This document shows positions 1,691-39,403 of a DNA stretch of 64,000 nt, in pieces; the first letter of the stretch is position 1, and each line of letters starts with the position of its first letter. Source of the DNA: Candidatus Methanomethylicia archaeon (GTDB lineage: Archaea; Thermoproteota; Methanomethylicia; Culexarchaeales; Culexarchaeaceae); NCBI GenBank assembly GCA_038727515.1, contig JAVYVS010000001.1, positions 128,001 to 192,000 on the forward strand, read 5' to 3'. The notes below the pieces were generated by a model. The model saw only the letters and a program-made list of their open reading frames with translations. It did not search any database and was not told where the DNA came from. A program made the translations under genes and the position numbers.

Positions 1691-1767
1691 AATTTAATCT
1701 AAAATACACAACCCTAAAATATTTTCCATCAAAAACAACACTCCACCATGAATTAAAAAACAAATAT

Positions 1768-3800: not shown

Positions 3801-3837
3801 ATTTCTTTCATTAGTTTTAAATTTTCTTTTTATAGAT

Positions 3838-5028: not shown

Positions 5029-5097
5029 TCAATTTTCATCTATAATTTTTTGTTGGGGGTAAAATTTAAATTATAAGTATTTGAATTTTTAATTGAA

Positions 5098-6864: not shown

Positions 6865-6867
6865 ACC

Positions 6868-7233: not shown

Positions 7234-7258
7234 ACCTAAATCATTAAAATTTGATTTT

Positions 7259-8695: not shown

Positions 8696-8838
8696 AATAA
8701 TCCCCAAAATAATTATATTAGACAAAATTTAAAGAAGTGGGTTTAGCATTTCATTTGATTTTTATAGGGGTTTCCCTGCTGGAATTTGAAGATTTAAAAT
8801 GAAGATTTCTTTATATAGTTAGATTTTGAGATTTTAAT

Positions 8839-11591: not shown

Positions 11592-11634
11592 TTCAATCTA
11601 AATTACTTGTTAAATTAAACATATATAATTCTCT

Positions 11635-13110: not shown

Positions 13111-13175
13111 TTGTGTATTCATTAAGTTTTAATAATTATGTATTTATAGGTTTAATTCAAGATGGAGGTTATGTT

Positions 13176-13826
13176 ATGAGGGAAATTATTTTGAATAAAT
13201 TGATGGAAGCTATTTTGAATTATGATATTGAAGGTGCTGTTAAAGCTGCTGAAGAAGCTCTTAAATATGGTTTAGATCCTATTGATGCTATTGAGAATGG
13301 CCTTGCTAAGGGTATTAAGATTGTTGGTGAAAAATTTGGTTCTGGCGAGATCTTTTTAACTGAACTTGCTATAGCTGCTGAAGCTATGAAGGAAGCTCTT
13401 AAAATTTTTGAGCCAGCTATATTGAAGAGTGGTAGAGAGAGGAAGGTTTTGGGGAGAATTGTTATTGGAACTGTTGAAGGAGATATACATGATATTGGTA
13501 AGAATATTGTGAGTACCCTCCTCATGGCTTCTGGATTTGAAGTTATCGATCTTGGAGTTGATGTTCCAGTGGAAGTCTTCGTGGAAAAGGTTAAAGAGCT
13601 TAAACCTGATATTCTCGCTCTATCCGCTTTAATGACGACAACTATGATTAAAATGGTGGATGTTATAAAGGCTCTTGAACGTGAAGGTTTAAGAGATAAG
13701 GTTAAGGTTATGATTGGTGGTGCTCCAACATCTAAGGATTGGGCTAGGGAGATTGGTGCTGATGGTCATGGTGTAGATGCTATAGAAGCTGTGGAAGTAG
13801 CTAAGAAGCTTATTGGAGTAGCTTAA
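13176..13826 (+). CDS. Cognate corrinoid (B12-binding) protein, MttC/MtgC-like
   Basis: GTVEGDIHDIGKN, DLGVDVP, SALMTTT, IGGAP; GGAGG precedes ATG at 13176. Confidence 0.95.
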   Translation: MREIILNKLMEAILNYDIEGAVKAAEEALKYGLDPIDAIENGLAKGIKIVGEKFGSGEIFLTELAIAAEAMKEALKIFEPAILKSGRERKVLGRIVIGTVEGDIHDIGKNIVSTLLMASGFEVIDLGVDVPVEVFVEKVKELKPDILALSALMTTTMIKMVDVIKALEREGLRDKVKVMIGGAPTSKDWAREIGADGHGVDAIEAVEVAKKLIGVA

Positions 13827-13843
13827 GTATGGTGATTTAATCT

Positions 13844-15280
13844 ATGAGCACCCCTAAAATTCAATTGTTATCTAAAGAAGAAATTGAGTGTATTCATTAT
13901 TCTTCAATTAAGATTTTGGAAGAAGTTGGTGTAAAGATATATAATGATAATGCTCTTAAACTACTCTATGATAATGGTTGTGAAGTGGATTTTAATAGGA
14001 AGATTGTCCGTATACCTCAACCTCTAGTTAAAGAAGCTTTAAGTAAAACTCCATCCACCATAAAACTTTATGGTAGAAGTAGAAGTTATGATCGTATAAT
14101 TGGAGGGGATATTGTTACATTTAATCCAGGTTCAGCTGCACTATACATTTTAGATTATGATAGGAATGAAATTAGAAAGCCTACTTCCAATGATTTAGCG
14201 AATTTAGTTAGATTGGCTGATGCACTTGAGAATATTCACGCTCAGAGTACAGCTTTAGTTGTTTCAGATGTTCCAGAATCTATTGTTGATCGTTACCGCC
14301 TCTATATTGTCCTTAAAAATTCTCCTAAACCAATAATTACCGGTGCATTTACAATTGATGGAATTTACGATATGAAGCGTATGCTTGAAATTGTAGTTGG
14401 TGGTGAAGAAGAATTAATTAAGAAGCCTATGGCTATATTTGATGTATGTCCTTCATCACCATTAAATTGGAGTGAGATTGTAACTCAAAATTTAATTGAT
14501 TGTGCTAAATTTAATTTACCCATTGAAATAATTCCAGCTCCTCAATTGGGTGCTACCGGCCCTGTCACCATAGCTGGCTCCGTGGCTCAGCATAATGCTG
14601 AATTTCTAAGTGGTTTAGTTATGGCTCAACTTGTTAATCCAAAGACTCCTGTAATCTATGGTGGTTCACCTACAGTTTTAGATCAAAGGTTTGCTACCCC
14701 CTCTCTTGGAGCTATAGAAGCTATTATGGTTGTTTGTTGTTATACTCAGATTGCTAAGAATTATGGAATTCCAACACATGCATATCTTGGAATTAGTGAT
14801 TCAAAGATTATTGATGCTCAATGTGGTTTTGAATCTAGTATTGGAATATTTCTAGGTGTTCTTGCAGGGGTAAATGTTATTTCTGGTCCTGGAATGCTTA
14901 TCTCTGAGAATTGTCAAAGTTTAGAGAAGCTTGTTATAGATAATGAAATATGTGGTATGGCTTTGAGATTGGCTAGAGGTGTAAAAGTTGATGAGGATAC
15001 TCTTGCTATTGATTTAATTAAGAAGGTGGGTCCGGGAGGTATGTATCTAGCTGAGAAACATACTCTTAAACATTTTAGGAGTGAATTGTTAATACCCTCT
15101 GAAATTATTGATAGGAGGGATTGGAAGGTTTGGATGGATTGTGGAAGTAAAGATACTGTTAAACGAGCACATGAAATTACTTCAAAAATTTTAAGTAAAC
15201 ATAAACCTGAACCTCTACCAATTGATGTTGAGAAAGAACTTGATAACTTCGTTAAAGAGATCTTAAAGAAGAAGTGTTGA
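13844..15280 (+). CDS. MttB-superfamily (non-pyrrolysine) methyltransferase 2
   Basis: SSPLNW, GATGPVTIAGS...NAE, YLGISDSKIIDAQCGFE, SGPGML, VGPGG; Ile at the Pyl-equivalent site. Confidence 0.93.
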   Translation: MSTPKIQLLSKEEIECIHYSSIKILEEVGVKIYNDNALKLLYDNGCEVDFNRKIVRIPQPLVKEALSKTPSTIKLYGRSRSYDRIIGGDIVTFNPGSAALYILDYDRNEIRKPTSNDLANLVRLADALENIHAQSTALVVSDVPESIVDRYRLYIVLKNSPKPIITGAFTIDGIYDMKRMLEIVVGGEEELIKKPMAIFDVCPSSPLNWSEIVTQNLIDCAKFNLPIEIIPAPQLGATGPVTIAGSVAQHNAEFLSGLVMAQLVNPKTPVIYGGSPTVLDQRFATPSLGAIEAIMVVCCYTQIAKNYGIPTHAYLGISDSKIIDAQCGFESSIGIFLGVLAGVNVISGPGMLISENCQSLEKLVIDNEICGMALRLARGVKVDEDTLAIDLIKKVGPGGMYLAEKHTLKHFRSELLIPSEIIDRRDWKVWMDCGSKDTVKRAHEITSKILSKHKPEPLPIDVEKELDNFVKEILKKKC

Positions 15281-15608
15281 ATCCTCAAAATTTTACAATA
15301 CATATTTATTTTGAAGAATATAATGATAGAATTAATTGAAAATCCATAACTTCATCAAAATCATTGTTTTTACATCCTTTTAATTCCCAATTCATTCCCA
15401 TGAACCTTTAATTAAATTGATAGTAACATGATAAAATTGTGTAAATGGTATTATTCTCTTTTTCAATACTTCACACCTTAACTTTTACCCTAACAAAGCC
15501 TACTACTCATATAAAGAAAAGGATGTTAACTCGAAGAAAACGCCGAACTATAATTATCCAAAGACTATAAATGATTTAAATATTATTTATAGAATTTTAT
15601 TTACGTGG

Positions 15609-16850
15609 TTGGTGTTTTCTTTGAGTTTTGCTTTGTCAATGGTTTGTGAGAAGTGTGGTAGAGAGTATCCTTTGGATAGTTATAGTTTTAGATGTTTTGA
15701 TTGTAATGAGCCTATAATGGTGCTATATGATTATGAAGCTTTGAAAGATTCTCTGAGTAGAGATTCTCTGAAATCTAGGGTTTTTAATGTTTGGCGTTAT
15801 AGAGAGCTTCTACCAATTAAGGGAGATAATGTAGTATCTTTATTTGAGGGTGGAACTCCATTGATAAAGAGTTTTAGGATTCATAGGCTTTTTGGTTTTA
15901 GGAATTTATATTTTAAGGATGAGAGTAGAAATCCCACTGGATCATTTAAGGATAGGGGTTCTAGTGTTGGTGTTTCAAAGGCTTTGGAAATTGGAGCTAA
16001 AGTTGTTGGTTGTGCATCTACTGGGAATATGGCTTCTTCTCTATCTGCATATGCTACTAAAGCTGGTTTAAAATGTATAATTTTAATTCCAAGGAATACC
16101 CCCATGGAGAAGATTATGCAAACTCTATATTATGATCCATTAACTTTCTCTGTGGATTTACCATACCCTGAACTCTATAAGCTTTCCTTTGAAGCTGCTT
16201 TAAATCATGGTTTATATTTAGTTCATTCCGATAGTCCTATGAGGATTGAAGGTCAAAAAACTATTGCATATGAAATTTGTGAACAATTGAATTGGATTGC
16301 TCCTGATGTTGTTATTGTTCCAACTAGTAGTGGAGGTAATTTTAGTGCTATTTGGAAGGGGTTTAAAGAGTTTTATGATTTAGGTTTTATAGGTAAACTT
16401 CCAAGGATGATTTGTGTTCAAAGTAGTGGATGTGCACCTATTGTTGAAGCTTTTAAATCTGGTGGAGATTTAAAGCCTTGGGTTAATCCTAAGACTATTG
16501 CACATTCCATATCTAATCCCAATCCATCTCTAGCTAGTGGTAATCGTGTTTTAAGAATTTTAAGGGAAAACAATGGTTATGCTGAAATGGTTTCTGATCG
16601 TGAAATTTCTGAATTTCAAAGGATACTTGCTATTTGTGAGGGTTTATTTATTGAACCTGCTTCTGCAGCTTCTGTAGCTGTTTTACATAGATTGTTGGAT
16701 GATGGTATTATAGATAGAGATGAAACTATTGTATGTATCCTAACTGGTTCTGGATTTAAAGATTTAAATGCAATAAGAAATTATATTAAAGTTCCAATTA
16801 TGGTAGGTTCTAAAGAGGAATTTATTGAGAATATTACCAGTATTAGTTGA
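15609..16850 (+). CDS. thrC: Threonine synthase family PLP enzyme
   Basis: N-terminal CxxC...CxxC, EGGTPL, NPTGSFKDRG, ASTGN, EGQKTIAYE, EPASA, LTGSGFKD. Confidence 0.85.
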   Translation: MVFSLSFALSMVCEKCGREYPLDSYSFRCFDCNEPIMVLYDYEALKDSLSRDSLKSRVFNVWRYRELLPIKGDNVVSLFEGGTPLIKSFRIHRLFGFRNLYFKDESRNPTGSFKDRGSSVGVSKALEIGAKVVGCASTGNMASSLSAYATKAGLKCIILIPRNTPMEKIMQTLYYDPLTFSVDLPYPELYKLSFEAALNHGLYLVHSDSPMRIEGQKTIAYEICEQLNWIAPDVVIVPTSSGGNFSAIWKGFKEFYDLGFIGKLPRMICVQSSGCAPIVEAFKSGGDLKPWVNPKTIAHSISNPNPSLASGNRVLRILRENNGYAEMVSDREISEFQRILAICEGLFIEPASAASVAVLHRLLDDGIIDRDETIVCILTGSGFKDLNAIRNYIKVPIMVGSKEEFIENITSIS

Positions 16851-16898
16851 TTAGTGTATTCTAGTAAACTTTAAATGTAAATTTTTATACTTTATTTT

Positions 16899-17663
16899 GT
16901 GTTTAACGATATATCTATTAAATTGATTCTTTCATTGGGGAAGTTGGGTGAATCTAGATTTAATGATTTAAAATCTTTCATTAAGAATTCTAGGAGTTTA
17001 TCTATTAATTTGAAGAAGCTTATGAATATGGGTTTAGTGGAGAATGTTAATGGATTATATAAGTTAACTGATAGAGGTGTTAAAGTTAATGAACTTTTGA
17101 GGGAGATTCATAATTTGATTTCATTATCTAGTTTTAAAATTGAGAATTTTGAGAGGATTCCACACTTATACTTTTCTCATTTAATTAAGAGGTATTGTGA
17201 ATTGCTTTTGGATTATTTTGGTGATAGATTGATTAGTATTATGCTTTTTGGCTCTATTGCTAGGGGTGATTGGAGTAGGGATAGTGATATTGATATTCTA
17301 ATTGTAGTTGATGGTTGGAATGATAAACCTATTTGGGTTAGAATTGGAGAGCTTAAGAATGTTAAGAAGATGCTTGAAGATACCTTTGAATTTAAAAAGG
17401 CTTTAAATGCTGGTTTTTGGCCTATAATTCAAAATTACCCTTTAAGTTTAGAGGAGGCTAAAAGGTTTAATAGGATTTATCTTGATGCTATTATCGATGG
17501 AATTATACTTTATGATAAGAATGATTTCTTGAAGAATGTTTTAGATAAGATTCGTAGGAGGATGGAGGCTTTAGGTTCTATGAGGATTACTCTGCTAAAT
17601 GGTAAATTTTACTGGGTTTTGAAGGGTGATATAATTGCTGGAGAGGTTATAGATTTTGAGTGA
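16899..17663 (+). CDS. wHTH-fused minimal nucleotidyltransferase (MNT antitoxin)
   Basis: N-terminal HxlR-like wHTH (YKLTDRG); LFGSIARGDWSRDSDIDIL. Confidence 0.85.
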   Translation: MFNDISIKLILSLGKLGESRFNDLKSFIKNSRSLSINLKKLMNMGLVENVNGLYKLTDRGVKVNELLREIHNLISLSSFKIENFERIPHLYFSHLIKRYCELLLDYFGDRLISIMLFGSIARGDWSRDSDIDILIVVDGWNDKPIWVRIGELKNVKKMLEDTFEFKKALNAGFWPIIQNYPLSLEEAKRFNRIYLDAIIDGIILYDKNDFLKNVLDKIRRRMEALGSMRITLLNGKFYWVLKGDIIAGEVIDFE

Positions 17664-18105
17664 AACTACAAATATTAAATTGGCTATTTCCGCATTGAAG
17701 AGGGCTGGTAGATGGCTTATGGGTGCATTTAGAGCTTTAGAAGATGGTAGATGGGATGATGTTGTTTATTCATCTCAAATGGTTGTTGAACAATCTTCAA
17801 AGGCTGTTTTAATAGCTCTTGGAATAGATTATCCAAAGGAACATGATGTTAGTATAGCATTTAAACATATTTTGAAATTGAAGAATATCCCAGAATGGTT
17901 TATAGTATTAATTGATGAACTCTCCGATAATATTTCTGAACTTGCAGAATTGAGGGGTTTAGCTGGATATGGATATGAAGAGGGTATAGATGTAGATTAC
18001 TTTAAAGATTATGCCCCCATAGCCTATGAAAAAGCTAAGAAACATTATGATGCATGTTCTAGATTACTTAGGGAATTATTCCATTTAAATGTGGATCATG
18101 TTTAG
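17656..18105 (+). CDS. HEPN domain protein (partner of MNT)
   Basis: SQMVVEQSSKA, YPKEHDV, R-x4-Y (RGLAGY); overlaps the MNT stop codon. Confidence 0.88.
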   Translation: MSETTNIKLAISALKRAGRWLMGAFRALEDGRWDDVVYSSQMVVEQSSKAVLIALGIDYPKEHDVSIAFKHILKLKNIPEWFIVLIDELSDNISELAELRGLAGYGYEEGIDVDYFKDYAPIAYEKAKKHYDACSRLLRELFHLNVDHV

Positions 18106-18112
18106 TAATGAT

Positions 18113-18697
18113 TTACATAGTCCACATATTGTATCTATGTAATTCTTTAAAATCTCTTTCAGCTCTATCGATTGAGAAATTTATGAATTCACTTAAACAA
18201 CCCTTCTTACCCATATAATTATTCCATGATTTTATAGTTTCCCTCCAAAGACTTAATTCTAAAATACGTATTTTTGCAAGTCTAATTAAGCTCTTTTCAA
18301 TATTCTTCGGTATATTTTTCGAGTCTACTTTTAATCCTGGACACTTCCCTATAGCTTCATCATTAACTCCTATTCTTATCCCTCCATTTCTCTTAATTAT
18401 GTATAGGAATGGATAAAATCTACATACTAATGGTTTAAATTTATGTACTAAACATTTGCCATCTTCTAGGAATATACACATTTTTTCTTCTCTATGTAGT
18501 GATATATAGTATTCACCATCTTCAATCATCACTATAAATTCATCTTTAATGGGCTTTTCATCTACATTCTTTAAATCTACAATTTTCTTTAATTGATATC
18601 CACCATACATCTTTAATCTAAGCATATCAAGATGTGTTATGGGTATCCAATACCATTCACAACATTTCCCACATAATATACAATTGAATTCCACCAT
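18113..18697 (-). CDS. YkgJ/CxxCxxCC family Fe-S or zinc cluster protein
   Basis: CILCGKCC, CIFL...CLVHKFKPLVCRFYPF, CPG. Confidence 0.88.
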   Translation of the reverse strand: MVEFNCILCGKCCEWYWIPITHLDMLRLKMYGGYQLKKIVDLKNVDEKPIKDEFIVMIEDGEYYISLHREEKMCIFLEDGKCLVHKFKPLVCRFYPFLYIIKRNGGIRIGVNDEAIGKCPGLKVDSKNIPKNIEKSLIRLAKIRILELSLWRETIKSWNNYMGKKGCLSEFINFSIDRAERDFKELHRYNMWTM

Positions 18698-18736
18698 TTC
18701 TAGACAACCTCGTTGTAGAGATCACCTAGAAATGGT

Positions 18737-20611
18737 CTATTTATTTAATACATCTCTAATATTTTTAAATCTAATTAATTCTGCATACTTTTCATCTGTT
18801 AATCCAATAATGTTTAGTAATCTTCCATTTATCCTATTTCTATCTAATGCTCTCTTCCAAAATGGTCTTGGATCAAGTCCTTGGAATAATGGTGTTAATT
18901 GTGATTTATGCATTTTTATAGCTTCAATCTTTTTATTCATGAGTTCTTCATCGAATGGTATTATCATATCTGCTTCATATATCATGTATTCTTCCCAGCT
19001 GCCTTTGTAAAGCCATATTTTAGATTCATGTTTTGTAAATGTTCTTTTTAATGCTTCAAGTATTATTTCAATACATTTGCCATGGGTTCCATGGGGATCA
19101 TCAACTTCACCTGGCATAACGATTATTTCAGGTTTGATTTCATTTAATAATTTCATGACAATTTCAATGTCAGCATTTGTTATTGGATTTTTAATTATTA
19201 CACCAGATTCATAGAATGGTAGTCTTAAAAAGTATAGTTTATCTCTCTTTATCCCTAGAATTTCAGCGGCTTTACAAGCTTCCCTTTCTCTTATCTTAGC
19301 TTTTAAATCCAAAAGCTTTTTTAACTCTATACTTCCACTTTTAATGTCGTTTATTATTTTGCTTAAGCTTTCCCCATTTTCAATTAGTTCATCTATTTCT
19401 TCAATAACGTCGCTATCTCTTACAGCTATATTACCTGAAACCATATACGCCACTCTAACATCATTACCTATGTCATTAAGCATTTTCATTGTAGCTCCTA
19501 TACATATTACATCATCATCTGGATGTGGAGAAAATATTAAGATTCTTTTATCCTTTGGAAGTTTATTTTCATCCACTATTTTTGATTCAAGTATACTAAT
19601 TACATTTTGTTTTAGAAAATCTAAATTGTAGGATGCTAATTCTTCAAGCTTCATATATTTTAAATCTTCTACGTTTAACTCAATTATCCTCTTCTTCAGT
19701 TCTATTGCTGTTAACGTTAATGCTTTTTCCAAAAGGTTTTCCTCTTTTCCCAAAGCTTTCTTCAATTCAAATGTCCAATCAACTTTTGAATATAGCCATG
19801 GCATGACAATCCTCCTCAATTTTGATGCTGCCCCTCTATCTAGTATGAATATTGTGTTTGGATGTTTTTGTAGTATTGATGCTGGAACTAAATTTGTTAT
19901 TTCACCTTCTAAAGCTTCTTTTACACTACTTGCTTTATGCTCCCCTGAAGCTAACAATATTATCTTTTTTGCCTCCATTATTGTCGCTATACCCATTGTT
20001 ATAGCATAGTATGGGACTTCTTCAATTCTCATGAAGAATCTTGAATTATCACTTCTAGTTTGTTCAGACAATTTTACAAGTCTTGTTCTACTATTAAATG
20101 ATGATCCAGGCTCATTGAAACCTATATGTCCACCAATATATTTGCCATCTTCATTATAATATCCACCGCCTATGCCTAGAATCTGTAGATCTATTCCACC
20201 ATGAGCTTTTATTTCATCTTCATACCATTCACAATACTCATTTATTTTTGATATTTCAACTTCGCCATTGGGTATATGAATATTTTCTTCTTTAATGTTT
20301 ACGTGATTGAAAAAGTAGTATTTCATGTAGAAATGATAACTGTAGGGGCTATTTCTTGGCATAGGCCAATATTCATCTAAATTGAACGTTACCACTTTGG
20401 AAAAATTGATTAAACCACGTTTAAACATTCTAATAAGTTCATCGTACATTCCAATGGGTGTACTTCCAGTAGCCAATCCTATAACGCTGTCAGGTTTATT
20501 TATAATTTGATTTGCAATTATTTCAGCAGCATTTCTACTCATTTCCCAATAATCACTTTGAATCACTACTTTAACCATGGGTGTGTCATGTAAATTTTGT
20601 CCTCCTCCCAA
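18737..20611 (-). CDS. nagB: Glucosamine-6-phosphate deaminase (NagB) fused to a PIG-L family deacetylase-like domain
   Basis: GLATGSTP, FNLDEY, GHIGFNEPG, AITMGIATI; C-terminal SPHPDDDVI and DPHGTH. Confidence 0.9.
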   Translation of the reverse strand: MGGGQNLHDTPMVKVVIQSDYWEMSRNAAEIIANQIINKPDSVIGLATGSTPIGMYDELIRMFKRGLINFSKVVTFNLDEYWPMPRNSPYSYHFYMKYYFFNHVNIKEENIHIPNGEVEISKINEYCEWYEDEIKAHGGIDLQILGIGGGYYNEDGKYIGGHIGFNEPGSSFNSRTRLVKLSEQTRSDNSRFFMRIEEVPYYAITMGIATIMEAKKIILLASGEHKASSVKEALEGEITNLVPASILQKHPNTIFILDRGAASKLRRIVMPWLYSKVDWTFELKKALGKEENLLEKALTLTAIELKKRIIELNVEDLKYMKLEELASYNLDFLKQNVISILESKIVDENKLPKDKRILIFSPHPDDDVICIGATMKMLNDIGNDVRVAYMVSGNIAVRDSDVIEEIDELIENGESLSKIINDIKSGSIELKKLLDLKAKIREREACKAAEILGIKRDKLYFLRLPFYESGVIIKNPITNADIEIVMKLLNEIKPEIIVMPGEVDDPHGTHGKCIEIILEALKRTFTKHESKIWLYKGSWEEYMIYEADMIIPFDEELMNKKIEAIKMHKSQLTPLFQGLDPRPFWKRALDRNRINGRLLNIIGLTDEKYAELIRFKNIRDVLNK

Positions 20612-27323: not shown

Positions 27324-28934
27324 TTATCCTTTAATGAATTTTACAAGGTTTTCTAAGAAGTTTTTATTATCGCCTATATCATGAAATGGATCTAATAGGA
27401 ATGTTAGATCTCCAATGGCTATAACATTACCATTTATAGCTATAGGTGTATATACATTTCTTACATCTAATAGTGATAGGTAAGTTGTATTGAAGGTGTA
27501 TGCTAACTTCTCTTTTCCACCATATACTTGTGCAGCTGTAAATAGTATGAGTTCAGTTATATTTGATGTTAATGGATGATTCGTAAAATTCTTTAACACT
27601 ATATTCCTATATATCCCATAATTATATTTTAAATCGTATAAGTAGCCATCGGAGAAGTGCATTCCATATTCTTGAGCTAACATATTTATGTATATTGATG
27701 AAACTATGGAAGGATCATAAATCATTAATAATTTCCCTCCATTACTAACATAATTCTTTATAATGTTTATTTCATGGGGAGTGAAGGGTGAACTTGGGCA
27801 GATGATTAATAGGGCTTTTGGTATTCCTATGGTCATCATGAAATTCTGTAATGATTGAATATCTGTGAATAATATTTTTATGTTGTTTTCAATTAATTTA
27901 CCCCAAAGTGCTCCTAGAATTTCATATATGAAGAGATTTCTATGTGAGATATCTACAAAAACAACTTCTTCACCAGTGGGATTGTAATTTGATATGATAT
28001 TCGTTGGTGTATTGGAAATAGTATTTTCTCCCATAAATCTATAAGCCTTGATATAATATGGCGATAGATAGTATATGCCCAATGGTTCTGGTTGAAGTTT
28101 AGATAGTAATTCAATAGATAAAAATTCACCTTTTGACCATAATTCCCCTCCTAAGGATTGTATATTCTTCTTAAACATTTCAGTTAAATCAATAATCCTA
28201 TATTCAACTATACCAGCAATTTTAGCTACTCTATCTACAACTTCAATAAATGAACTAAAACCATCTATTAAACCTAATTTAATAGCATCGTTGGCTATAT
28301 AGAGTTTACCTAAAGAAAGTTCTTCCATTGTAGTATTCAATTTTAAACCTCTACTAGATTTTATTGCATTTATGAAATTATCTAAAGCATTTTTAACAAT
28401 GAAAGGAACCTCCTTTAAAGAGAATCCAGTATATTTGTATGGTCCAGTTTCTATGATAGCTTCAGAAGGAATAACTAGGTATGGTTGACTCATAATAAGT
28501 CCAATATTTCCAATAAGGGAAGTTGGTGTAGAATATATCTCTCTAGAACCAAGACACACATAGTATCCTCCAGAAGCAGCAAGTCCCTCAATAATGGTTA
28601 CCACAGGTTTAATTGAATTAAGTTTCTTTAGAGCATTGTAAATATCTTCCACTATGGAAGCATAACCACCTGGAGAATCTACTCTTAACACAATACCAGT
28701 AATAGAATTATTTAGATAAGCATATAGTATTGAATTTATGTAGAGTTCCTTATCATAATCACTAATCATATATCCATAAATACTTATAACACCAATTAAT
28801 GGGATGGCTCGAATGGTAGGTTTAAAAATGAGTGGAAGGGTATAGTAAGTTATATAGTATCCTAAAGCTAAACCTGCAAAAAACATTACAATAAATAGTA
28901 TGAATATACTAATACGTAGAGGCAAATTTCTCAA
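27324..28934 (-). CDS. S49 (SppA-like) peptidase fused to a GldG/DUF4350-like domain
   Basis: TM anchor, RVDSPGG, AASGGYY, IGNIG, GPYK, LGLIDG; C-terminal FVDISH...YVSNGGKLL...HPLTSNITEL...IAIGD...DNKNFLENL. Confidence 0.8.
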   Translation of the reverse strand: MRNLPLRISIFILFIVMFFAGLALGYYITYYTLPLIFKPTIRAIPLIGVISIYGYMISDYDKELYINSILYAYLNNSITGIVLRVDSPGGYASIVEDIYNALKKLNSIKPVVTIIEGLAASGGYYVCLGSREIYSTPTSLIGNIGLIMSQPYLVIPSEAIIETGPYKYTGFSLKEVPFIVKNALDNFINAIKSSRGLKLNTTMEELSLGKLYIANDAIKLGLIDGFSSFIEVVDRVAKIAGIVEYRIIDLTEMFKKNIQSLGGELWSKGEFLSIELLSKLQPEPLGIYYLSPYYIKAYRFMGENTISNTPTNIISNYNPTGEEVVFVDISHRNLFIYEILGALWGKLIENNIKILFTDIQSLQNFMMTIGIPKALLIICPSSPFTPHEINIIKNYVSNGGKLLMIYDPSIVSSIYINMLAQEYGMHFSDGYLYDLKYNYGIYRNIVLKNFTNHPLTSNITELILFTAAQVYGGKEKLAYTFNTTYLSLLDVRNVYTPIAINGNVIAIGDLTFLLDPFHDIGDNKNFLENLVKFIKG

Positions 28935-29861: not shown

Positions 29862-29966
29862 TTAAATGTTAGTATGAGCTTAAGATAATGGTTCTATTAA
29901 TTGTTAATTTAAATTCCTAGACAAAATTTATATGTAATGTTTATTACATGGATTTTTTGAGTATGT

Positions 29967-30773
29967 ATGAATTTTATATTTGAGACATCTCAAATAATTC
30001 ATTCTGGTAGAGCCAGCGGCCTAGTCATATTATTAATAATAGCCTTTGCAGCCATTTACTTTATTAGAAGGGGTAAAGGGGGTAAAATTCCTAGTATCCG
30101 TAGAGTGGCTGGTTTAGATGCTATTGAAGAGGCTATTGGTAGAGCTACTGAAATGGGTAGACCTGTATTTTGTTCTCAAGGTCTTGCGGATATTCATGAT
30201 TCAACTTATGGACCTCAAACTATTGCTGGTTTATCTGTATTGGGTTATGTGGCTCAACTTTGTGCAAGATATGGTACAAGGGTTATAGTTCCTGTTGTAA
30301 GCTTAACCGTTTATCCTATCGCTAGAGAAATTGTGGAAAATGCTTATAGGATGGAGGGTAAGCTTGATCAATTTAGAGTGGAAGATATACCTTTCCTTTC
30401 AACATGGCAATTTAGTTATTCTCTTGGTTATATGAGTTTAATGAGAAGGGAGAAAGCTGGTGCAAACATTATGATTGGAGCTTATTGGGCTGAATCCCTT
30501 CAGCTTTCTGAAGTTGGATATAGAGTTGGTGCTATGCAGGTTAGTGGAACAGCAAACACACACCAAATACCATTCTTCGTAGTAGCAACAGACTACTGCC
30601 TAATAGGAGAAGAAATCTTTGCAGCAGGAGCATACCTAAGCAAAGACCCAGCAATGATAGGAAGCATAGTAGCACAAGACATAGGAAAAATTATTTCATT
30701 GATATTGATCGTTTTAGGGATTTTAATTGGTCTTAGTGGTTCTAAGATTATTGTGGATTTATTGAATATGTAG
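29967..30773 (+). CDS. DUF6754-like membrane-anchored protein
   Basis: IRRVAGLDAIEEAIGRATEMGRPV, QIPFFVVATDYCLIGEEIFAAGAYLS; N- and C-terminal TM helices. Confidence 0.75.
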   Translation: MNFIFETSQIIHSGRASGLVILLIIAFAAIYFIRRGKGGKIPSIRRVAGLDAIEEAIGRATEMGRPVFCSQGLADIHDSTYGPQTIAGLSVLGYVAQLCARYGTRVIVPVVSLTVYPIAREIVENAYRMEGKLDQFRVEDIPFLSTWQFSYSLGYMSLMRREKAGANIMIGAYWAESLQLSEVGYRVGAMQVSGTANTHQIPFFVVATDYCLIGEEIFAAGAYLSKDPAMIGSIVAQDIGKIISLILIVLGILIGLSGSKIIVDLLNM

Positions 30774-30786
30774 AGGTGATGGTATT

Positions 30787-31440
30787 ATGGCATGGTATAA
30801 ACGTATTGAAATTCCAATAGCAATAACAATTATATGCGCACTAATACAAATAATACCATACTTTATCGTTATGGGTCCAGCTGTTGAAGAATTTATGGAT
30901 AATGCTGTAAATTGGGAGATGTTGGTGGCTGCAGGTGCATTATTTGTAGGTGCTATATCGCTAGTACTTGTACATGCTCCTAGAATTGTTAAAAGGCAGA
31001 CTCATTGGCAGTATAGCTTGGAATTATTGGTTTTAATGGCTTTAACAATTATAGTTGGTTTACCAATTCGTGAAATTGGATTAGGAATGGATAACGCCAT
31101 CTTTACATTTATAGTGGATAATATTTTAACACCATTGGATAGTAGTTTGTATGCTATGTTGGCATTCTTCATAACTTCAGCTGCATATAGAGCTTTTAAA
31201 GCTAGATCTCTTGAAGCAGCATTGCTCTTAGTTGCTGGGTCAATATTGGTATTTAGAAATGCACCTTTAGGAACATTCCTAATTCCAGGGGCTGCTGATC
31301 TTGGAGATTGGTTGTTTAGAATTCCAAATATGGCTGTTCAAAGGGCAGTCATTATTGGTGGTGCTCTTGGCGCTATAGTTCTTGGGGTTAGAACTTTGTC
31401 TGGTTATGAAAGAGGTTATTTGAGGGGTGGAGGTGTATAA
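30787..31440 (+). CDS. Uncharacterised polytopic membrane protein (DUF6754 operon, gene 2)
   Basis: About 6 TM segments; AFFITSAAYRAFKARSLEA, GYERGYL; GAGGTGA ribosome-binding site. Confidence 0.75.
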   Translation: MAWYKRIEIPIAITIICALIQIIPYFIVMGPAVEEFMDNAVNWEMLVAAGALFVGAISLVLVHAPRIVKRQTHWQYSLELLVLMALTIIVGLPIREIGLGMDNAIFTFIVDNILTPLDSSLYAMLAFFITSAAYRAFKARSLEAALLLVAGSILVFRNAPLGTFLIPGAADLGDWLFRIPNMAVQRAVIIGGALGAIVLGVRTLSGYERGYLRGGGV

Positions 31441-31441
31441 T

Positions 31442-32272
31442 ATGAGTTTATGGGATAAACTTGAAAACATAGATTCAAGAATAATATATCTACTCATATG
31501 GATCGTTGTTTTAACACCACTTATTTCACCCATAGGATTACCTGTTAGTATAAGTGAAAACACTATTGCATATGCTAGAACTATTGATCAACTTCCTCCA
31601 GGTTCTATGGTTGTATTATCCTTTGATTTTGGTTTAGGATCTCTTGGTGAACTGTATCCAATAGCTGTTGCAACTATGCATCACTTATTTAGTAGACCTG
31701 TGAAATTCGCAATAATAGCTATATGGAATCAAGGCCCCTTAGTTGCAAAAATGATTATAGATGAATTAAATCCTGAGAAAACTTATGGTAAGAAGTATGG
31801 TGAAGATTGGATATTCCTAGGGTGGGCTCCTGGCGGCGAAGTTGCAATGCGTGCATTAGGTCAAGATTTCTGGAAGGTTTTCCCAACCGACTATCTATAT
31901 AAACGCTCTGTAAGTGAATACCCAATTATGCAAAAATTAAAGTCAGCTAATGATGTAGCTTTACTAATAAGTATAGAAACAGGTACTCCTGGTGTTGATG
32001 AATGGGCTAGACAGTGGGGACCATATAATGTTCCCATGCTTATTGCATGTATAGGTGTTTCAGCGCCCGGGGTTACCCCATACCTTCAATCTGGACAAGT
32101 TAAAGGTTTACTTCCAGGTTTGAGGGCTGGTGCTGAATATGAGCTTCTTATCGGTAGGAAGGGGCTTGCAGTAGCTTCGGCTGATGCTTTATCCACTACA
32201 CATATGCTCTTCTTGATATTCGTGGTTATAGGCAATATTAGTTATTTTGCTAAGAGGAGGGGGATTAAATGA
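31442..32272 (+). CDS. Uncharacterised membrane-anchored alpha/beta protein (DUF6754 operon, gene 3)
   Basis: TM-soluble-TM layout; YGEDWIFLGWAPGGE, PYLQSGQVKGLLPGLRAGAEYE. Confidence 0.75.
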   Translation: MSLWDKLENIDSRIIYLLIWIVVLTPLISPIGLPVSISENTIAYARTIDQLPPGSMVVLSFDFGLGSLGELYPIAVATMHHLFSRPVKFAIIAIWNQGPLVAKMIIDELNPEKTYGKKYGEDWIFLGWAPGGEVAMRALGQDFWKVFPTDYLYKRSVSEYPIMQKLKSANDVALLISIETGTPGVDEWARQWGPYNVPMLIACIGVSAPGVTPYLQSGQVKGLLPGLRAGAEYELLIGRKGLAVASADALSTTHMLFLIFVVIGNISYFAKRRGIK

Positions 32273-32991
32273 GTGAGTTAACTACATTTTTTGCAGCATT
32301 TTGCGGTGTATTCTTTACACTTGCAGTTTATACTTTTCTATATAAAGAGAATCCATGGTCTAGATTTGCAGAATACGCTTTCATAGGAACTGCTGCTGGT
32401 TATGATGTTGCATACTTCTTAGATTGGTTGCGTGGTCAATGGGAGGGGACGTGGTCTACTACAACTAGTGGTACTATTGCATTTATCTTTGCAATGTTGA
32501 TAAGTGTATTATGGTACTTTAGATTTTCAAAGAGATTCTTCTGGATTTATAGGATTCCATTGGCTGTGGTTGTAGGTACTGGTATTGGTTTAGCTTTGAG
32601 AACTGTGGTTTTTGCACAATTAATTGCTCAAGTTAGAGCTACGGCAGGTTTATCATTTATTGGTGTTGATGCTTGGACTGTATTTAATAATCTAGTTACA
32701 GCTGTAATTGTGGTATGTGTACTATTATACTTTATATTTACGATTAAGCAAGAAGCTATTTATTGGAAGCCAGTAAATAAGTTTGCTAGATACTCTATGA
32801 TGGTAGGCTTTGGATCAGCATATGGATATACTGTATTAACGAGAATGTCTATGTTTATAGGTCGTGCACAATTCCTATTAGGCATACCTCCATATGCCCC
32901 TGAAAATAAGATGTTCTTCCCATGGATTGCCTTACTCCTACTAGCTACACTCATAGGGTACGATTACTACCAAAGAATCAAAAAATCCTAA
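32269..32991 (+). CDS. Uncharacterised polytopic membrane protein (DUF6754 operon, gene 4)
   Basis: About 6-7 TM segments; YKENPWSRFAEYAFIG, MVGFGSAYGYTVLTRMS; overlaps the previous stop codon. Confidence 0.75.
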   Translation: MSELTTFFAAFCGVFFTLAVYTFLYKENPWSRFAEYAFIGTAAGYDVAYFLDWLRGQWEGTWSTTTSGTIAFIFAMLISVLWYFRFSKRFFWIYRIPLAVVVGTGIGLALRTVVFAQLIAQVRATAGLSFIGVDAWTVFNNLVTAVIVVCVLLYFIFTIKQEAIYWKPVNKFARYSMMVGFGSAYGYTVLTRMSMFIGRAQFLLGIPPYAPENKMFFPWIALLLLATLIGYDYYQRIKKS

Positions 32992-33023
32992 ATTTTTACT
33001 TTTTTTATCTTTTTATATGAATA

Positions 33024-33467
33024 TCATTGGAAGTTTTTAATAAATTCATCTTTGATCTTATCTACTATTTTCTGTAGAATTTCCAATTTAATTTCCATTT
33101 GTGGGTATGGATAATAGTGTTTACCCCAATTTTCATCTACGAATTTTATTCCTTCAAAAATTCTTTCAGTCTTATATCTTGGAATAATGTGGAGATGTAA
33201 ATGTCTAACAATATTTCCAAGCATAGCATAATTGAATAAGTCTGGTTGGAAAATTTTCTTTAAAACTTTAACAAATGTTTTAGTCAATGAAATTAATTCC
33301 ATCAATTCATCATCCGATAATTCCAATGGATCCTCTAAGTGTCTTTTAAGTATAATCATAGATCTACCAAGATAGTATTGATTGGGGTTTAGAGTAATCT
33401 TCCAATATCTTCCTTCATAAATTGTAATTTTATTGATTTCTTCATCACAAAAGGGGCACTTCATCAT
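33024..33467 (-). CDS. HIT family hydrolase
   Basis: CPFC; VRHLHLHIIPRY histidine triad. Confidence 0.92.
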   Translation of the reverse strand: MMKCPFCDEEINKITIYEGRYWKITLNPNQYYLGRSMIILKRHLEDPLELSDDELMELISLTKTFVKVLKKIFQPDLFNYAMLGNIVRHLHLHIIPRYKTERIFEGIKFVDENWGKHYYPYPQMEIKLEILQKIVDKIKDEFIKNFQ

Positions 33468-33972: not shown

Positions 33973-34815
33973 ATGAAATATCAGCGTTTTCTAGTTAAAG
34001 GATTTAAACCTTTTAATCCTTTGGAATTAGCTAAACAAACTGAGGAGATAGTGATTAGGGAGGGTTCCGATGGTGTTGAGAGGAAATATACGGATTTCTA
34101 TTCAGTGCCAGTGTATAGGGGGATTGCTACTGGTTATGCTATTGGTTGTTGTTTAAGATGTTTTTATTGCTGGAGTAATTGGTCTAGAGATTTCCCTGAG
34201 ATTTTTGGGGAATTTTATTCACCGAAGATGGTTGCTCAAAAACTTTTAGAAGCAGCTAAGAGGGGTATTACTTATTCATCTTATTGGAGTAGGAAGATTC
34301 CAGTAATTAGGAAGTTTAGATTGTCTGGATGTGAACCTACATTGGGTAGAGAACATTTAATTTCAGTTTTAGAGCATGTTGAGAAAATGAATTTTCCATT
34401 TTATCTTGAAACTAATGGTATACTTTTAGGTGCTGATAGAAGTTATGTGAGGGATTTAGCTCAATTTTCAAAATTCATTTATGTGAGAGTTTCATTTAAA
34501 GCAGCAACCCCTGAAACCTTTACTCAGAGGACTGGTGCATTGGGTGAATACTATGAATTACCATTTAAAGCTTTAAAATACTTGTTGGATGAAGGTATTT
34601 TTGCAAGAGCTGCAGCTATGACTGATCCAAGAATTATGTCAAATGAAGAGAGGGAGTTATTAATTGAAAAATTGAGTGAAATTGATTCAAGATATTCAGA
34701 AGGTGAACTTGAAGAAGAAGTTATAGATCCTTACGATACAACAATTAAAAGGATTAAAGCATATTATGATGAAAATTTTGCAGAAAAATTGATGAAATCC
34801 TTTCAATTAAAGTAG
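33973..34815 (+). CDS. Radical SAM protein (archaeal COG5014-like)
   Basis: GIATGYAIGCCLRCFYCWS, RLSGCEPT, LETNGILLG. Confidence 0.88.
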   Translation: MKYQRFLVKGFKPFNPLELAKQTEEIVIREGSDGVERKYTDFYSVPVYRGIATGYAIGCCLRCFYCWSNWSRDFPEIFGEFYSPKMVAQKLLEAAKRGITYSSYWSRKIPVIRKFRLSGCEPTLGREHLISVLEHVEKMNFPFYLETNGILLGADRSYVRDLAQFSKFIYVRVSFKAATPETFTQRTGALGEYYELPFKALKYLLDEGIFARAAAMTDPRIMSNEERELLIEKLSEIDSRYSEGELEEEVIDPYDTTIKRIKAYYDENFAEKLMKSFQLK

Positions 34816-35176
34816 AGAGAGATTTGTATTAGCTTTAAAGAGAAGTCATATTTCTACTGGAGAAACATATATCCTATCTGAAGATAGAGCATATACCTAT
34901 AGGGAAGTTTATCAAATATTATCTGAGATATTGGGTAGAAGTCCACCTAAATATTCCATACCTCCAAGTATAGCTAAAATTTTATTGTCATTTACAGAGG
35001 TATATGATAAATTAAGGGGAGGAGACAACATCTTATTTAGAAGGATGATTGTTGATGCAGTTACTAAACATAGAGCATATAGTATTGAGAAGGCGAGGAG
35101 AGAATTGGGTTATACTCCTCAATATACTTTGAGGAATGGATTAAGAGAGACTATTGAATGGTATATTAATCAATGA
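34811..35176 (+). pseudogene. 3' remnant of an NAD-dependent epimerase/dehydratase
   Basis: GETYILSEDRAYTYREVY...YSIEKARRELGYTPQYTLRNGLRETIEWY; no N-terminal Rossmann domain; stop codon at 34808. Confidence 0.8.
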
Positions 35177-35290
35177 ATAATAAAGGTGTAAACTATTTTT
35201 GTTGGAATAAATCTTTGTTTTCATTATTGTAATTTATTTTATTGTTTAATCGTAAAGTTTTATACTTGTAATTTATCATCTAATTTATAA

Positions 35291-36061
35291 GTGTTTTTTA
35301 TGGTTGTTTGGAGGCTTCTACCCTTTATCAGGGTTAATGGTTATTTGCAGATGGCTATTGATGAATCTATTTTGATTCATAGATGTGAGGGTAAGGTTCC
35401 AAATACCGTTCGCTTTTATCAATTTTATCCTAGTGCTGTTACAATAGGGTATTTTCAATCTATTTTTGAAGAGGTTTATTTAGATTATTGTTCTAGTAAT
35501 GGTATTGATGTTGTTAGACGTATTACTGGTGGTGGAGCTGTTTTCCATGATGAAAATGGTGAAATAACTTATTCTGTTGTTGCTGGAATTAATGATGTTC
35601 CAAGGGATATCATCGAATCTTATGGTTATATTTGTAATGGACTTATATATGCTCTTGAATATTTTGGTTTGAAGGGTGAATTTAAACCTTTAAATGATGT
35701 TGTTGTTCTTGGTAAGAAGATTTCTGGTTCAGCTCAAACTAGACGTAGAGAAGCAATACTTCAACATGGAACTTTTATGTATTCCACTAATATCGGGAAA
35801 CTTGTTAATTCCCTTAAAATTGTTCCTGAGAAATTGAAGGATAAGGGTATTCAAGCATTAGAGGAGAGGGTTATAACTTTATCTAAAGCTCTTAATAGGA
35901 GTGTTTTAAGGGATGAAGTTTTAGAAGCTTTAATCAACGGTTTTAAGAAGGCTCTTAATGTTGAATTTATTGTTTCTGAACTTACTGAGAGTGAATGGAA
36001 TCTTGCTAAGGAACTTGCTGAAGAAAAGTATTCTCGTAGAGATTGGAATTATATGGTTTAG
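35291..36061 (+). CDS. Lipoate-protein ligase / octanoyltransferase (LplA/LipM catalytic domain)
   Basis: QMAIDE, VTIGYFQ, VRRITGGGAVFHD, NDVVVLGKKISGSAQ, LQHGT. Confidence 0.92.
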   Translation: MFFMVVWRLLPFIRVNGYLQMAIDESILIHRCEGKVPNTVRFYQFYPSAVTIGYFQSIFEEVYLDYCSSNGIDVVRRITGGGAVFHDENGEITYSVVAGINDVPRDIIESYGYICNGLIYALEYFGLKGEFKPLNDVVVLGKKISGSAQTRRREAILQHGTFMYSTNIGKLVNSLKIVPEKLKDKGIQALEERVITLSKALNRSVLRDEVLEALINGFKKALNVEFIVSELTESEWNLAKELAEEKYSRRDWNYMV

Positions 36062-36064
36062 GAC

Positions 36065-36934
36065 TTGGTGTCTGTTTTGGTTAAAGGTTATCGTCCACTA
36101 CCATTATTCCCCTCCATCTCTATTACTGGTGATAAATGTGGTTTAAAATGTAAGTTTTGTGAGGGTAGAGTTTTAGGTGAAATGCTTCATGCTTCTTCTC
36201 CCCATAATCTTTATGAGCTTGTTAAATATTTGAAGAATAAGTATGGTATTCTAGGTTTATTGATTAGTGGTGGATTTGATGTTAATGGTTTTCTACCGAT
36301 AAGACCATTTATACCAATTATACGTGATATTAAAAGGGATTTTGATTTAATTGTTAGTGTTCATTGTGGTTTTGTAGATATTGATTATGCTAGGATGTTG
36401 AGGGAGGCTGGTATTGATGTTGTGGATTTAAATATTTATGGGGCATTAACCATGAGGGATGTTATTGGATTAAATGTTGATTGGGATTTCATTGTGAATA
36501 ATCTTAATTGCATATATACCCATGGACCTGAATATATTGCTCCACACATACTTGCAGGAGCATATTTTGGTAAGTTGATGGAGGAAAATTCTATAATTGA
36601 TTTATTGAACGATTATGATCCATACATATTGATTTTCCTATCTATGATTCCAGTGAAGGGTACATGTTTTGAGAATACCCATTTAGTTGACATAAATGAT
36701 TTCTGTGAACTTTTTAGACTTGCTAGGAGGTTGCTATCTAAAACTGAATTGACTCTTGGATGTATGAGGGTTAGAGGTGAATACTCCATATCCATAGAGA
36801 GGATATTATTTAATGAAAATCTATTGGATAGAATTGTATTGCCAAATACTATTAAAGTTGATAAGATTTTACCATTTTGTTGTTCACTTCCAAGAGAGTT
36901 GGAAGATAAATTAATGTCTAAGATTGGCAATTAG
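36065..36934 (+). CDS. Radical SAM, archaeal lipoyl synthase component LipS1-like
   Basis: SITGDKCGLKCKFC, LISGG, LGCMR and C-terminal CC (FCCSL); adjacent to the lipoate ligase. Confidence 0.75.
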   Translation: MVSVLVKGYRPLPLFPSISITGDKCGLKCKFCEGRVLGEMLHASSPHNLYELVKYLKNKYGILGLLISGGFDVNGFLPIRPFIPIIRDIKRDFDLIVSVHCGFVDIDYARMLREAGIDVVDLNIYGALTMRDVIGLNVDWDFIVNNLNCIYTHGPEYIAPHILAGAYFGKLMEENSIIDLLNDYDPYILIFLSMIPVKGTCFENTHLVDINDFCELFRLARRLLSKTELTLGCMRVRGEYSISIERILFNENLLDRIVLPNTIKVDKILPFCCSLPRELEDKLMSKIGN

Positions 36935-38256: not shown

Positions 38257-38565
38257 TTATTTTCCATATAAATGGCATGCTATCAACCTATTATCTATGT
38301 TTAATAATTCTGGCTCTATTTTGCTGCATTTTTACATGGCGTATGGGCATCTTGGATGGAATCTACATCCACTTGGTGGATTTAATGCACTTGGTATTTC
38401 TCCTTTTATTGGTATTTTACTCCTTCTATATTCTGGGTCTGGTATTGGTACTGCTGATACCAATGCTTGTGTATATGGGTGTTTTGGATCTTCTAATACT
38501 CTATCTATATCCCCCATTTCCACTATTTTTCCAAGGTACATTATTGTTATTCTTTCACATATAAT
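38257..38565 (-). pseudogene. 3' remnant of an OppF/DppF ABC ATPase (oligo_HPY domain) with a premature stop
   Basis: ...CPYAM*KCSKIEPELLNIDNRLIACHLYGK*; no Walker motifs upstream. Confidence 0.85.
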
Positions 38566-38979
38566 GTAAGTTTTTATGGAAAATTTATTGGAAATATACT
38601 TTAATTTCTCTTGTGGAATTGTAAATTTAATGATCTCCGTAATTACAGTAGATTTTATAATGATTTCCCGTGAATAATAGCTTTCTATGTTATTCCATAT
38701 ATATGTGTTATCTGAGTATATTATGCTTTGTATACTTAATATCTTTATACTTATATCAATTGGATTTATAATTGTGTAATTTATTATGATTTTAGCTTCT
38801 AACTCATCAACTTTTAAATTAATACTTGCCACTTTTACTTTAAACATTTTGCCGATGAAATATGTTTTACCTATTAAATCTATTGAAATTATTATTGTAT
38901 ATGTAGCATATAATGTTAGAATTAATAGTAATAGTGATGGAAGTATTTCAATTAGATTACTTTTTAGTATTCTCTTCAT
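38332..38979 (-). CDS. Chimeric ORF: membrane-anchored hypothetical protein fused to the C-terminus of an oligopeptide ABC ATPase
   Basis: TM plus beta domain, then ICERITIMYLGKIVE...HPYTQAL...PPSGCRFHPRCPYAM; ATG at 38979 follows AGGAG. Confidence 0.6.
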   Translation of the reverse strand: MKRILKSNLIEILPSLLLLILTLYATYTIIISIDLIGKTYFIGKMFKVKVASINLKVDELEAKIIINYTIINPIDISIKILSIQSIIYSDNTYIWNNIESYYSREIIIKSTVITEIIKFTIPQEKLKYISNKFSIKTYIICERITIMYLGKIVEMGDIDRVLEDPKHPYTQALVSAVPIPDPEYRRSKIPIKGEIPSALNPPSGCRFHPRCPYAM

Positions 38980-39037
38980 TCTCCTACACACACCAAAATA
39001 ATAAAACTTTAATTTTATCTTTACGGTATATGTTTTA

Positions 39038-39403
39038 ATGAAACATAGTATTTTACTTTTATTTTTGACTTTAACCATAATATTCACTGGTTCAAATACC
39101 TTATTCATTTATTGGAATGAGGAAATTCAATGGTATGTTATTATCTTATTTTCATCGATTATAATGGCTTTTATAAATACTTCAATTAATCTTAAGATGA
39201 AAATAGGAATTCTCTTTTTAGCATGGATTGCAAGTATTGTATTTACAAGTTTCGTAATTTGTTATCCACTTATTTTATGGGGAGGAAGTCTAACCGCTAA
39301 TGAGGTAATCATATCTACAGTTGCACGTACATTAATTATTGTTTTCATAGGATTAACAATATCATTAGTTTCATTATTGTTCTTCTCATTCTTCAAGAGA
39401 TAG
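39038..39403 (+). CDS. Small four-TM membrane protein
   Basis: Highly hydrophobic 121-aa ORF. Confidence 0.6.
   Translation: MKHSILLLFLTLTIIFTGSNTLFIYWNEEIQWYVIILFSSIIMAFINTSINLKMKIGILFLAWIASIVFTSFVICYPLILWGGSLTANEVIISTVARTLIIVFIGLTISLVSLLFFSFFKR

Follow-up and report, generated by a model that had tools for sequence, protein, structure and literature searches.

The four-gene cassette and the proteins it encodes

The window analysed here is a stretch of 64,000 nucleotides (nt) from a Candidatus Methanomethylicia archaeon (contig JAVYVS010000001.1, positions 128,001 to 192,000), and our subject is a cassette of four membrane-protein genes within it, here called G1 to G4, of which the host genome holds eight copies alongside one actin-fold ATPase of a distinct class. 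The genes encode a DUF6754 subunit (G1, 29967-30773, 268 amino acids (aa)), a polytopic membrane subunit (G2, 30787-31440, 217 aa), a third protein (G3, 31427-32272, 281 aa from a GTG at 31427 or 276 aa from an ATG at 31442) and a further membrane subunit (G4, 32269-32991, 240 aa). All four open reading frames lie on the forward strand and are as tightly packed as a preliminary description of this DNA had reported: G1 and G2 are 13 nt apart, G2 and G3 overlap by 14 nt (a gap of 1 nt if the ATG is used) and G3 and G4 overlap by 4 nt. Shine-Dalgarno-like sites precede G2 (GGTGA), G3 (GGAGGTG) and G4 (GGAGGGGG), and because GGAGGTG stands ahead of the ATG at 31442, that codon is the more likely start of G3.

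A putative archaeal promoter region (29924-29949, forward strand) could be read ahead of G1. It comprises a TATA-like element, AAATTTATAT (29924-29933), about 38 nt 5' of G1, and a perfect 7-bp inverted repeat, ATGTAAT-n4-ATTACAT (29932-29949), which ends 18 nt ahead of the G1 start, overlaps the TATA-like element and may be an operator. The repeat is not shared with the regions upstream of the other seven cassettes, and no promoter or operator motif common to all eight was found there beyond AT-rich TATA-like runs. Directly 3' of the G4 stop, an oligo-T tract (32992-33020, forward strand) is likely to terminate transcription in the archaeal manner and to close the operon.

The operon had been described as DUF6754-like, and the Pfam hidden Markov model (HMM) places G1 well inside that family (PF20539; E 3.7e-82, 275.7 bits against a gathering cut-off of 27, profile positions 3-253 of 257). 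The earlier view that G1 and G3 both consist of an alpha/beta domain between transmembrane (TM) segments is borne out by AlphaFold2 models, for which 40 and 53 relatives were aligned and whose predicted local distance difference test (pLDDT) values are 90.3 and 95.8, respectively. In G1 an N-terminal TM helix (~15-37) is followed by a Rossmann-like domain (~45-226) and a long C-terminal TM helix (~228-256); in G3 the order is a first TM helix (~17-33), a Rossmann-like domain (~40-245), a C-terminal TM helix (~247-275) and a basic tail.

The distribution of lysine and arginine (K/R) supports opposite membrane orientations for these two proteins. The 12 residues after the first TM helix of G1 hold 4.2 K/R on average, against 0.75 before it (98% of 99 sequences), so that by the positive-inside rule the N-terminus would lie outside and the Rossmann-like domain in the cytoplasm. 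In G3 it is the tail after the last TM helix that is enriched (3.6 K/R, against 1.3 before; 95% of 97 sequences), and by the same rule its N-terminus and basic tail would be inside and its Rossmann-like domain external. Counts of N-glycosylation sequons and cysteines, taken as a check on the sidedness of both domains, were too low to inform. A second support for the G1 topology comes from longer family members, because the 108 DUF6754 proteins of 470-1065 aa carry besides DUF6754 only PKD, He_PIG, FN3 and copper-amine-oxidase-N domains, all of them extracytoplasmic types, and the extension is N-terminal to DUF6754 in those long forms that were checked. In the G1 tree the long forms make up one well-supported clade of diderm phyla; the Bacillota and the archaea have the short form. 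Two particularly long G1 proteins (986 and 923 aa) occur in a Cloacimonadota genome (G202; locus L107, 1995-4955 and 7515-10286), where G3 measures 400 aa instead of ~280 aa and where the N-terminal ~660-730 residues of G1 had no Pfam match beyond weak FN3 and LRV signals.

The preliminary description had further proposed a pseudo-symmetric 2+2 complex, in which G1 would correspond to G3, on account of parallel sequence patterns, and G2 to G4. These patterns have no statistical support (BLASTP E 0.58; hhalign probability ≤2%, even with profiles of 40-99 sequences), although in the hhalign alignment the quoted stretches of G1 and G3 do pair up, each forming the second strand-helix unit of its domain. 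Between G2 and G4 no relationship could be detected by BLASTP, and the hhalign probability is ≤2.5% (for both pairs, profiles of 7-8, 40-53 and ~99 sequences per family were compared). Nor did hhalign find a relationship for any other pair among G1-G4 and two families of small proteins introduced below. In Foldseek searches of the PDB neither the G1 nor the G3 model retrieved anything at E ≤ 1e-3. A wide structure search (VIA) gave flat lists of Rossmann-like proteins for both, with overlapping top PDB neighbours (1kjn, 3u31, 6lrf, 4j16_C, 6i8v, 3l4b). One of these, the uncharacterised structural-genomics protein MTH777/MT0777 (1kjn), has no TM helices, is 8-9% identical and has a Z-score similar to that of other list members; its likeness is one of common fold only. 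What G1 and G3 share is thus their architecture and a generic Rossmann-like fold, and the 2+2 symmetry is not supported.

The two polytopic subunits had been counted as roughly six-helix proteins. For G2 this stands, since hydropathy and K/R profiles over ~99 sequences show six hydrophobic segments throughout the family; both its termini are probably inside, and the motifs SAAYRAFRAR and PN..A..RA are conserved. The pattern is less clear for G4, where three strongly hydrophobic segments are accompanied by several amphipathic ones that bear arginine. No Pfam or NCBIfam family matched G2, G3 or G4, and no PDB entry was matched by the sequence profiles of these three, nor meaningfully by that of G1; in the ESM Atlas, which has no models for G2 or G4, G2 matched unnamed clusters only and G4 had no named match. 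At the level of sequence, no Pfam, NCBIfam, PDB-profile or named Atlas match connects G2 or G4 with the known secondary transporter families (MFS, TRAP, TTT, APC and others), and in these searches no subunit of the cassette maps onto a characterised transporter family. The observation that an ATPase, Fe-S or heme protein is missing from the cassette was likewise confirmed with Pfam and NCBIfam.

Copies, distribution and a long-class ATPase

The host genome (1.59 Mb, 93.6% complete) contains eight DUF6754 matches and eight cassettes, all in the order G1-G2-G3-G4, a cassette being defined as a DUF6754 gene followed on the same strand by membrane genes of ~210, 280 and 210-240 aa; homologues of G1-G4 were located with HMMs built from the paralogues. 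The paralogous cassettes are 26-48% identical, and G1 is the best-conserved subunit (35-48% versus 26-37% for G2-G4). The one exception is the copy at 285946-288938 of contig 2, which shares 80/69/71/72% identity with the window copy and groups with it as its sister in the tree. Seven cassettes were found in the sister genus, where the orthologue of the window copy is 86/78/91/85% identical to it. Because each of the seven has a one-to-one orthologue in the host genome (69-92% identity), the paralogues are old, have been individually maintained by selection and are presumably not redundant. In one cassette (contig 1, 631817-634760; locus L013, 5991-8979) an in-frame TAA splits G1 into 149 aa and 101 aa, either as a pseudogene or through an assembly error; its G2-G4 are intact and its orthologue is present in the sister genus.

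A scan of species-representative genomes recovered 547 confirmed relatives, and the locus counts given here are for the best 80 loci. About 73 of these 80 keep the order G1-G2-G3-G4, spread over more than 10 bacterial phyla (Bacillota, Cloacimonadota, Zixibacteria, Fermentibacteria, WOR-3, Eisenbacteria, Poribacteria, Planctomycetota and others), often in tandem arrays and with 1-8 or more copies per genome, so that the notion of a conserved unit of an undescribed kind is supported. Within the phylum of the archaeal host the family is rare (4 of 201 sampled genomes). The archaeal G1 copies fall among the short forms of the Bacillota in a quick tree with long branches, which suggests that the cassette was acquired from bacteria; the same tree is compatible with a single origin of the archaeal copies.

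The host genome encodes only one PF13941 (MutL/GlmL) protein, a 619-aa ATPase (contig 1, 553923-555782, minus strand; locus L010, 5924-7783) that matches the whole model (E 1e-121). Its gene is part of a module (552755-556301) at ~392 kb from the window cassette and occurs in the order 148-aa single-TM protein, ATPase, 384-aa partner, M55 D-aminopeptidase and ornithine/diaminopimelate decarboxylase. The partner shows weak RnfC_N/KOW signals, with no conserved lysine for lipoyl or biotinyl attachment seen in its barrel-sandwich region, and sequence profiles gave no meaningful PDB match for either the partner or the ATPase. In 27 of the 80 loci ATPase and partner stand directly beside the cassette, and the full bacterial operon consists of c15, c10, ATPase, partner and G1-G4, where c15 and c10 are the two small-protein families mentioned above; the archaeal 148-aa protein is not significantly related to them (hhalign 7% with c10 and 0.2% with c15).

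GlmL/MutL is known as an accessory protein of the coenzyme-B12-dependent glutamate mutase and is related to the ASKHA reactivases DdrA and EutA. The host protein is not a classical GlmL, since the genome, at 93.6% completeness, contains no match to the glutamate mutase E subunit (GlmE/MutE, PF06368), and its sequence assigns it to a separate long class. Members of this class (threshold E < 1e-100) are ~150 residues longer than classical GlmL (600-650 versus ~460 aa), score E < 1e-130 at 43-70% identity among themselves and 1e-30 to 1e-42 at 28-41% identity against classical GlmL, and always come with a ~375-aa partner and DUF6754 cassettes. They are strongly conserved, with 94% identity between two archaeal genera, 48-60% between archaeal and bacterial members and more than 150 invariant columns. 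The phosphate-1 (DVGSTTTK) and adenosine (GTGG) motifs are kept in the host ATPase. The phosphate-2 motif reads GVGLGGATTN in all three archaeal ATPases, the other two (from loci L114 and L115) being 94% and 68% identical to the host protein, whereas it reads GVDIGGATTD in 26 of 26 bacterial ones, so that both aspartates are replaced. In Hsp70 and actin the equivalent aspartates help to hold the Mg-nucleotide.

The presence of this ATPase follows that of the cassette closely. Among 301 genomes of one bacterial phylum, DUF6754 occurs in 26 and the long-class ATPase in 25: 24 genomes have both, 2 only DUF6754 (one a degenerate fragment) and 1 only a partial ATPase, while the remaining 274 lack the two. 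Among 201 genomes of the archaeal phylum, 3 have both, 1 has only a DUF6754 fragment at a contig end and 197 have neither. These numbers bear on the possibility, raised in the preliminary description, of a pseudo-symmetric (2+2) secondary transporter or channel that carries two anchored domains for ligand binding, read here as a self-contained device independent of any ATPase. Such a device would agree with a cassette that includes no ATPase gene, with the large distance to the ASKHA module in the host and with the roughly two thirds of the 80 loci in which no ATPase occurs within 10 kb. Nevertheless, the nearly one-to-one co-occurrence with a dedicated ATPase module and its frequent adjacency, the lack of kinship within either supposed pair of subunits, and a G1 domain that charge bias and fusions place in the cytoplasm, where it is predicted to dock onto the ATPase through its invariant residues (see below) rather than to bind ligands outside, together make a stand-alone transporter very improbable.

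Predicted docking and a possible uptake system

Complex prediction with the ATPase and residues 36-236 of G1 gave an ipSAE interface score of 0.70 (0.72, 0.70 and 0.61 in separate runs), while none of three controls scored above 0.00. The runs agreed in at least 83% of their contacts, and the pLDDT of the partner did not fall below 81. Of 80 solved complexes, 58 attain the pass mark of this score, as do 2 of 110 mismatched pairs, and these counts are a rough guide here because our own alignments were used. Sequence searches of the PDB retrieved no similar solved complex. The predicted interface on G1 (residues 55-65, 101-103, 185-190 and 201-211) holds 7 of the 11 family-invariant residues (E55, G58, R59, E62, G188, D209 and Y210; Fisher p 3.5e-5), none of which is lost in any of the seven intact G1 paralogues. 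On the ATPase the predicted interface (118-123, 144-145, 169-178, 232, 235 and 401-415) includes R232, a residue common to all 27 long-class sequences and replaced by Y, L or M in classical GlmL, as well as two insertions (144-145 and 412-415) that classical GlmL lacks. The cytoplasmic domain of G1 is therefore predicted to dock on the shared ATPase by way of its invariant residues. The model would account for eight modules sharing one cytoplasmic protein, and the strong conservation of G1 among the paralogues fits a docking role that all of them have in common.

A contact of this kind can also be understood in terms of what is known for the relatives of the ATPase. ASKHA proteins of the GlmL family assist or reactivate enzymes whose cofactor-binding subunits are Rossmann-like, and the alpha subunits of reactivases bind a Rossmann-like domain themselves, which in the diol dehydratase reactivase is the beta subunit. 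The long-class ATPase is likewise predicted to bind a Rossmann-like domain, and given this parallel and the strong PF13941 match, G1 could be the client or regulatory domain of a membrane-anchored chaperone or sensing system, its state being reset or read by the ASKHA protein; the missing phosphate-2 aspartates of the archaeal ATPases would suit nucleotide sensing or scaffolding. However, no glutamate mutase E subunit was found in the host genome, neither a B12 motif (DxHxxG) nor a dinucleotide-binding glycine motif is conserved among the invariant residues of G1, and two polytopic subunits, an external domain, the many copies and the links to outer-membrane import described in the following are poorly explained. 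A client-and-chaperone or sensing role is consequently considered improbable, and slightly more so than the envelope function discussed next.

The genes around other copies of the cassette point to import. In Fermentibacteria, Eisenbacteria and relatives, strings of genes on one strand run from gcvT-gcvH-gcvPA-gcvPB over c15, c10, ATPase and partner to G1-G4, and continue, in some cases after LplA, with a TonB-dependent receptor that bears a CarboxypepD_reg domain and with ExbB-ExbD-ExbD-TonB, so that an outer-membrane import set and amino-acid catabolism flank the system. Other copies are neighboured by peptidases (M20, S58, M55, S49, M28), asparaginase, amidohydrolases, DUF4438 and Opp-type ATPases. 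Because of the import sets, the gcv genes and the peptidases nearby, uptake of nitrogenous nutrients, that is of amino-acid- or peptide-derived compounds, is favoured. An opposite direction was weighed as well, in which an export or cell-envelope machine, coupled to the ATPase, would move a lipid-linked intermediate, a polymer or a protein outward or would organise envelope assembly. Actin-fold proteins such as FtsA, MreB and PilM do organise membrane machines, the up to ~700 residues of PKD/Ig/FN3-type domains in the long G1 forms would suit scaffolding at the surface or in the periplasm, and nothing here fixes the direction of transport. Yet eight diverged and individually conserved copies in the 1.59-Mb genome of an archaeon that has no outer membrane fit many substrates better than a single envelope task, the TonB receptor with ExbBD/TonB, the glycine cleavage genes and the peptidases all point inward, and glycosyltransferase and polymerase genes did not appear among the recurring neighbours, which leaves an export or envelope function unlikely.

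The reading that we favour, to which we give about an even chance, is that of a modular, nucleotide-coupled uptake system. G1-G4 would form one four-subunit membrane module, of which G2 and G4 would make up the polytopic core. G1, the docking subunit, would span the membrane twice and keep its highly conserved Rossmann-like domain in the cytoplasm, where its invariant face would dock onto the long GlmL-like ATPase that all eight modules have in common, and through G1 this shared cytoplasmic module would energise or gate uptake. G3 would expose its more variable Rossmann-like domain outside and capture the substrate there, each module having a substrate of its own; amino-acid- or peptide-derived solutes would be the most likely cargo. 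A stronger version of the same idea, which we regard as somewhat less probable, is that the system represents a new class of primary (nucleotide-coupled) transporter, driven or gated by an actin-fold ASKHA protein and built from interchangeable four-subunit modules with an outward Rossmann-like capture domain, and that it is of bacterial origin, has expanded to eight copies in the archaeon and has an altered phosphate-2 motif there.

Several points weigh against an uptake system of this kind. The docking score is the confidence of the model itself and was obtained from our own unpaired alignments. Relatedness among the genomes sampled for co-occurrence means that the counts overstate independence. 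The change in phosphate-2 may weaken hydrolysis, in which case the archaeal protein would gate or scaffold rather than power the module. Finally, the clues from the neighbourhood are mixed and none is specific to the window copy, which has a methyltransferase, an S49-peptidase fusion, a HIT protein and lipoylation genes around it.

The logic of the proposed system resembles that of group II ECF transporters, in which a shared EcfAA'T module serves several scattered S components: one energising module would serve many scattered specificity modules, here in a ratio of 8:1. The parts are different, as an ABC ATPase is absent, no Pfam or NCBIfam ECF component was found in G1-G4 or the ATPase module, and the unit consists of four proteins with ~15 TM helices and two Rossmann-like domains rather than of a single 6-TM S component. 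ABC importers with membrane-anchored substrate-binding proteins, of the archaeal and Gram-positive type, are alike in logic too and unrelated in their parts: no ABC_tran or ABC membrane family was found in G1-G4 (Pfam, NCBIfam, E ≤ 1), the nucleotide-binding protein is of the actin-fold type, coupling would proceed via the two-TM G1 and not via coupling helices of the core, and G3 is a single lobe instead of a two-lobe binding protein. The anti-phage models of PADLOC did not match G1-G4, the ATPase, the partner or the small protein (E ≤ 0.01). The Pfam entry for DUF6754 covers G1 only and assigns no function, and the G2-G4 partners, the reversed G3 and the link with the ATPase appear in no family description that we found. 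Our literature search retrieved no publication on DUF6754/PF20539 or PF13941 and no relevant one on a membrane-linked GlmL/ASKHA protein; nothing comparable to the combination of cassette and ATPase is described in the literature searched, in Pfam (beyond the DUF entry) or in the PDB.

To our knowledge, every primary solute transporter described so far draws its power from one of a few ATPase types, and if an actin-fold protein does energise or gate the membrane module, a new ATPase type would be added for transport. The system is widespread, often with many copies per genome, and 4 of its 7 or 8 protein families are without annotation; it would probably account for a good share of the 'missing' nutrient uptake in genome-based models of uncultured amino-acid and peptide fermenters. 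Experimental handles are offered by the predicted docking surface with its seven invariant residues, by the opposite topology of G1 and G3 and by a cultured carrier, Symbiobacterium thermophilum.

Other genes near the cassettes

The strings with glycine-cleavage genes were encountered at loci L042, L039, L049 and L058 (about 1300-18800), with similar ones at L056 and L093, in metagenome-assembled genomes of the Fermentibacteria, Aegiribacteria and Eisenbacteria type. LplA follows the cassette in six bacterial loci, alongside glycine-cleavage genes. In the window, the gene next to G4 is a HIT family gene on the opposite strand (33024-33467), beyond which a lipoylation-type group was found (33973-36934) that comprises a radical SAM protein (33973-34815), an LplA/B ligase (35291-36061) and a second radical SAM protein (36065-36934), and that may represent an archaeal two-protein lipoyl synthase with its ligase. 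A glycine-cleavage link was considered for the window copy and rejected: the host genome has two GcvH genes and neither adjoins a cassette, one being found with gcvT on another contig and one in a HdrA/HdrC/HdrB-like cluster ~8 kb from the sister cassette. This cluster (contig 2, 290669-297645; locus L105, 1670-8646) encodes a HdrA/MvhD-like fusion (796 aa), an HdrC-like ferredoxin, an HdrB-like CCG protein, a 2Fe-2S/4Fe-4S protein, a fumarate-reductase-type flavoprotein, the GcvH-like protein and a ferredoxin, and looks like a heterodisulfide-reductase-like system with a lipoate-carrier-type protein.

Directly upstream of the cassette region in the window, on the minus strand, a 536-aa S49 (SppA-type) peptidase with a C-terminal ABC_transp_aux/GIFT-like domain is encoded (27324-28934), which is an unusual fusion. 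Further downstream, also on the minus strand, an open reading frame (38332-39108) contains the oligo_HPY C-terminal domain of Opp/Dpp-type ABC ATPases, and the organism therefore also has conventional peptide ABC transport.

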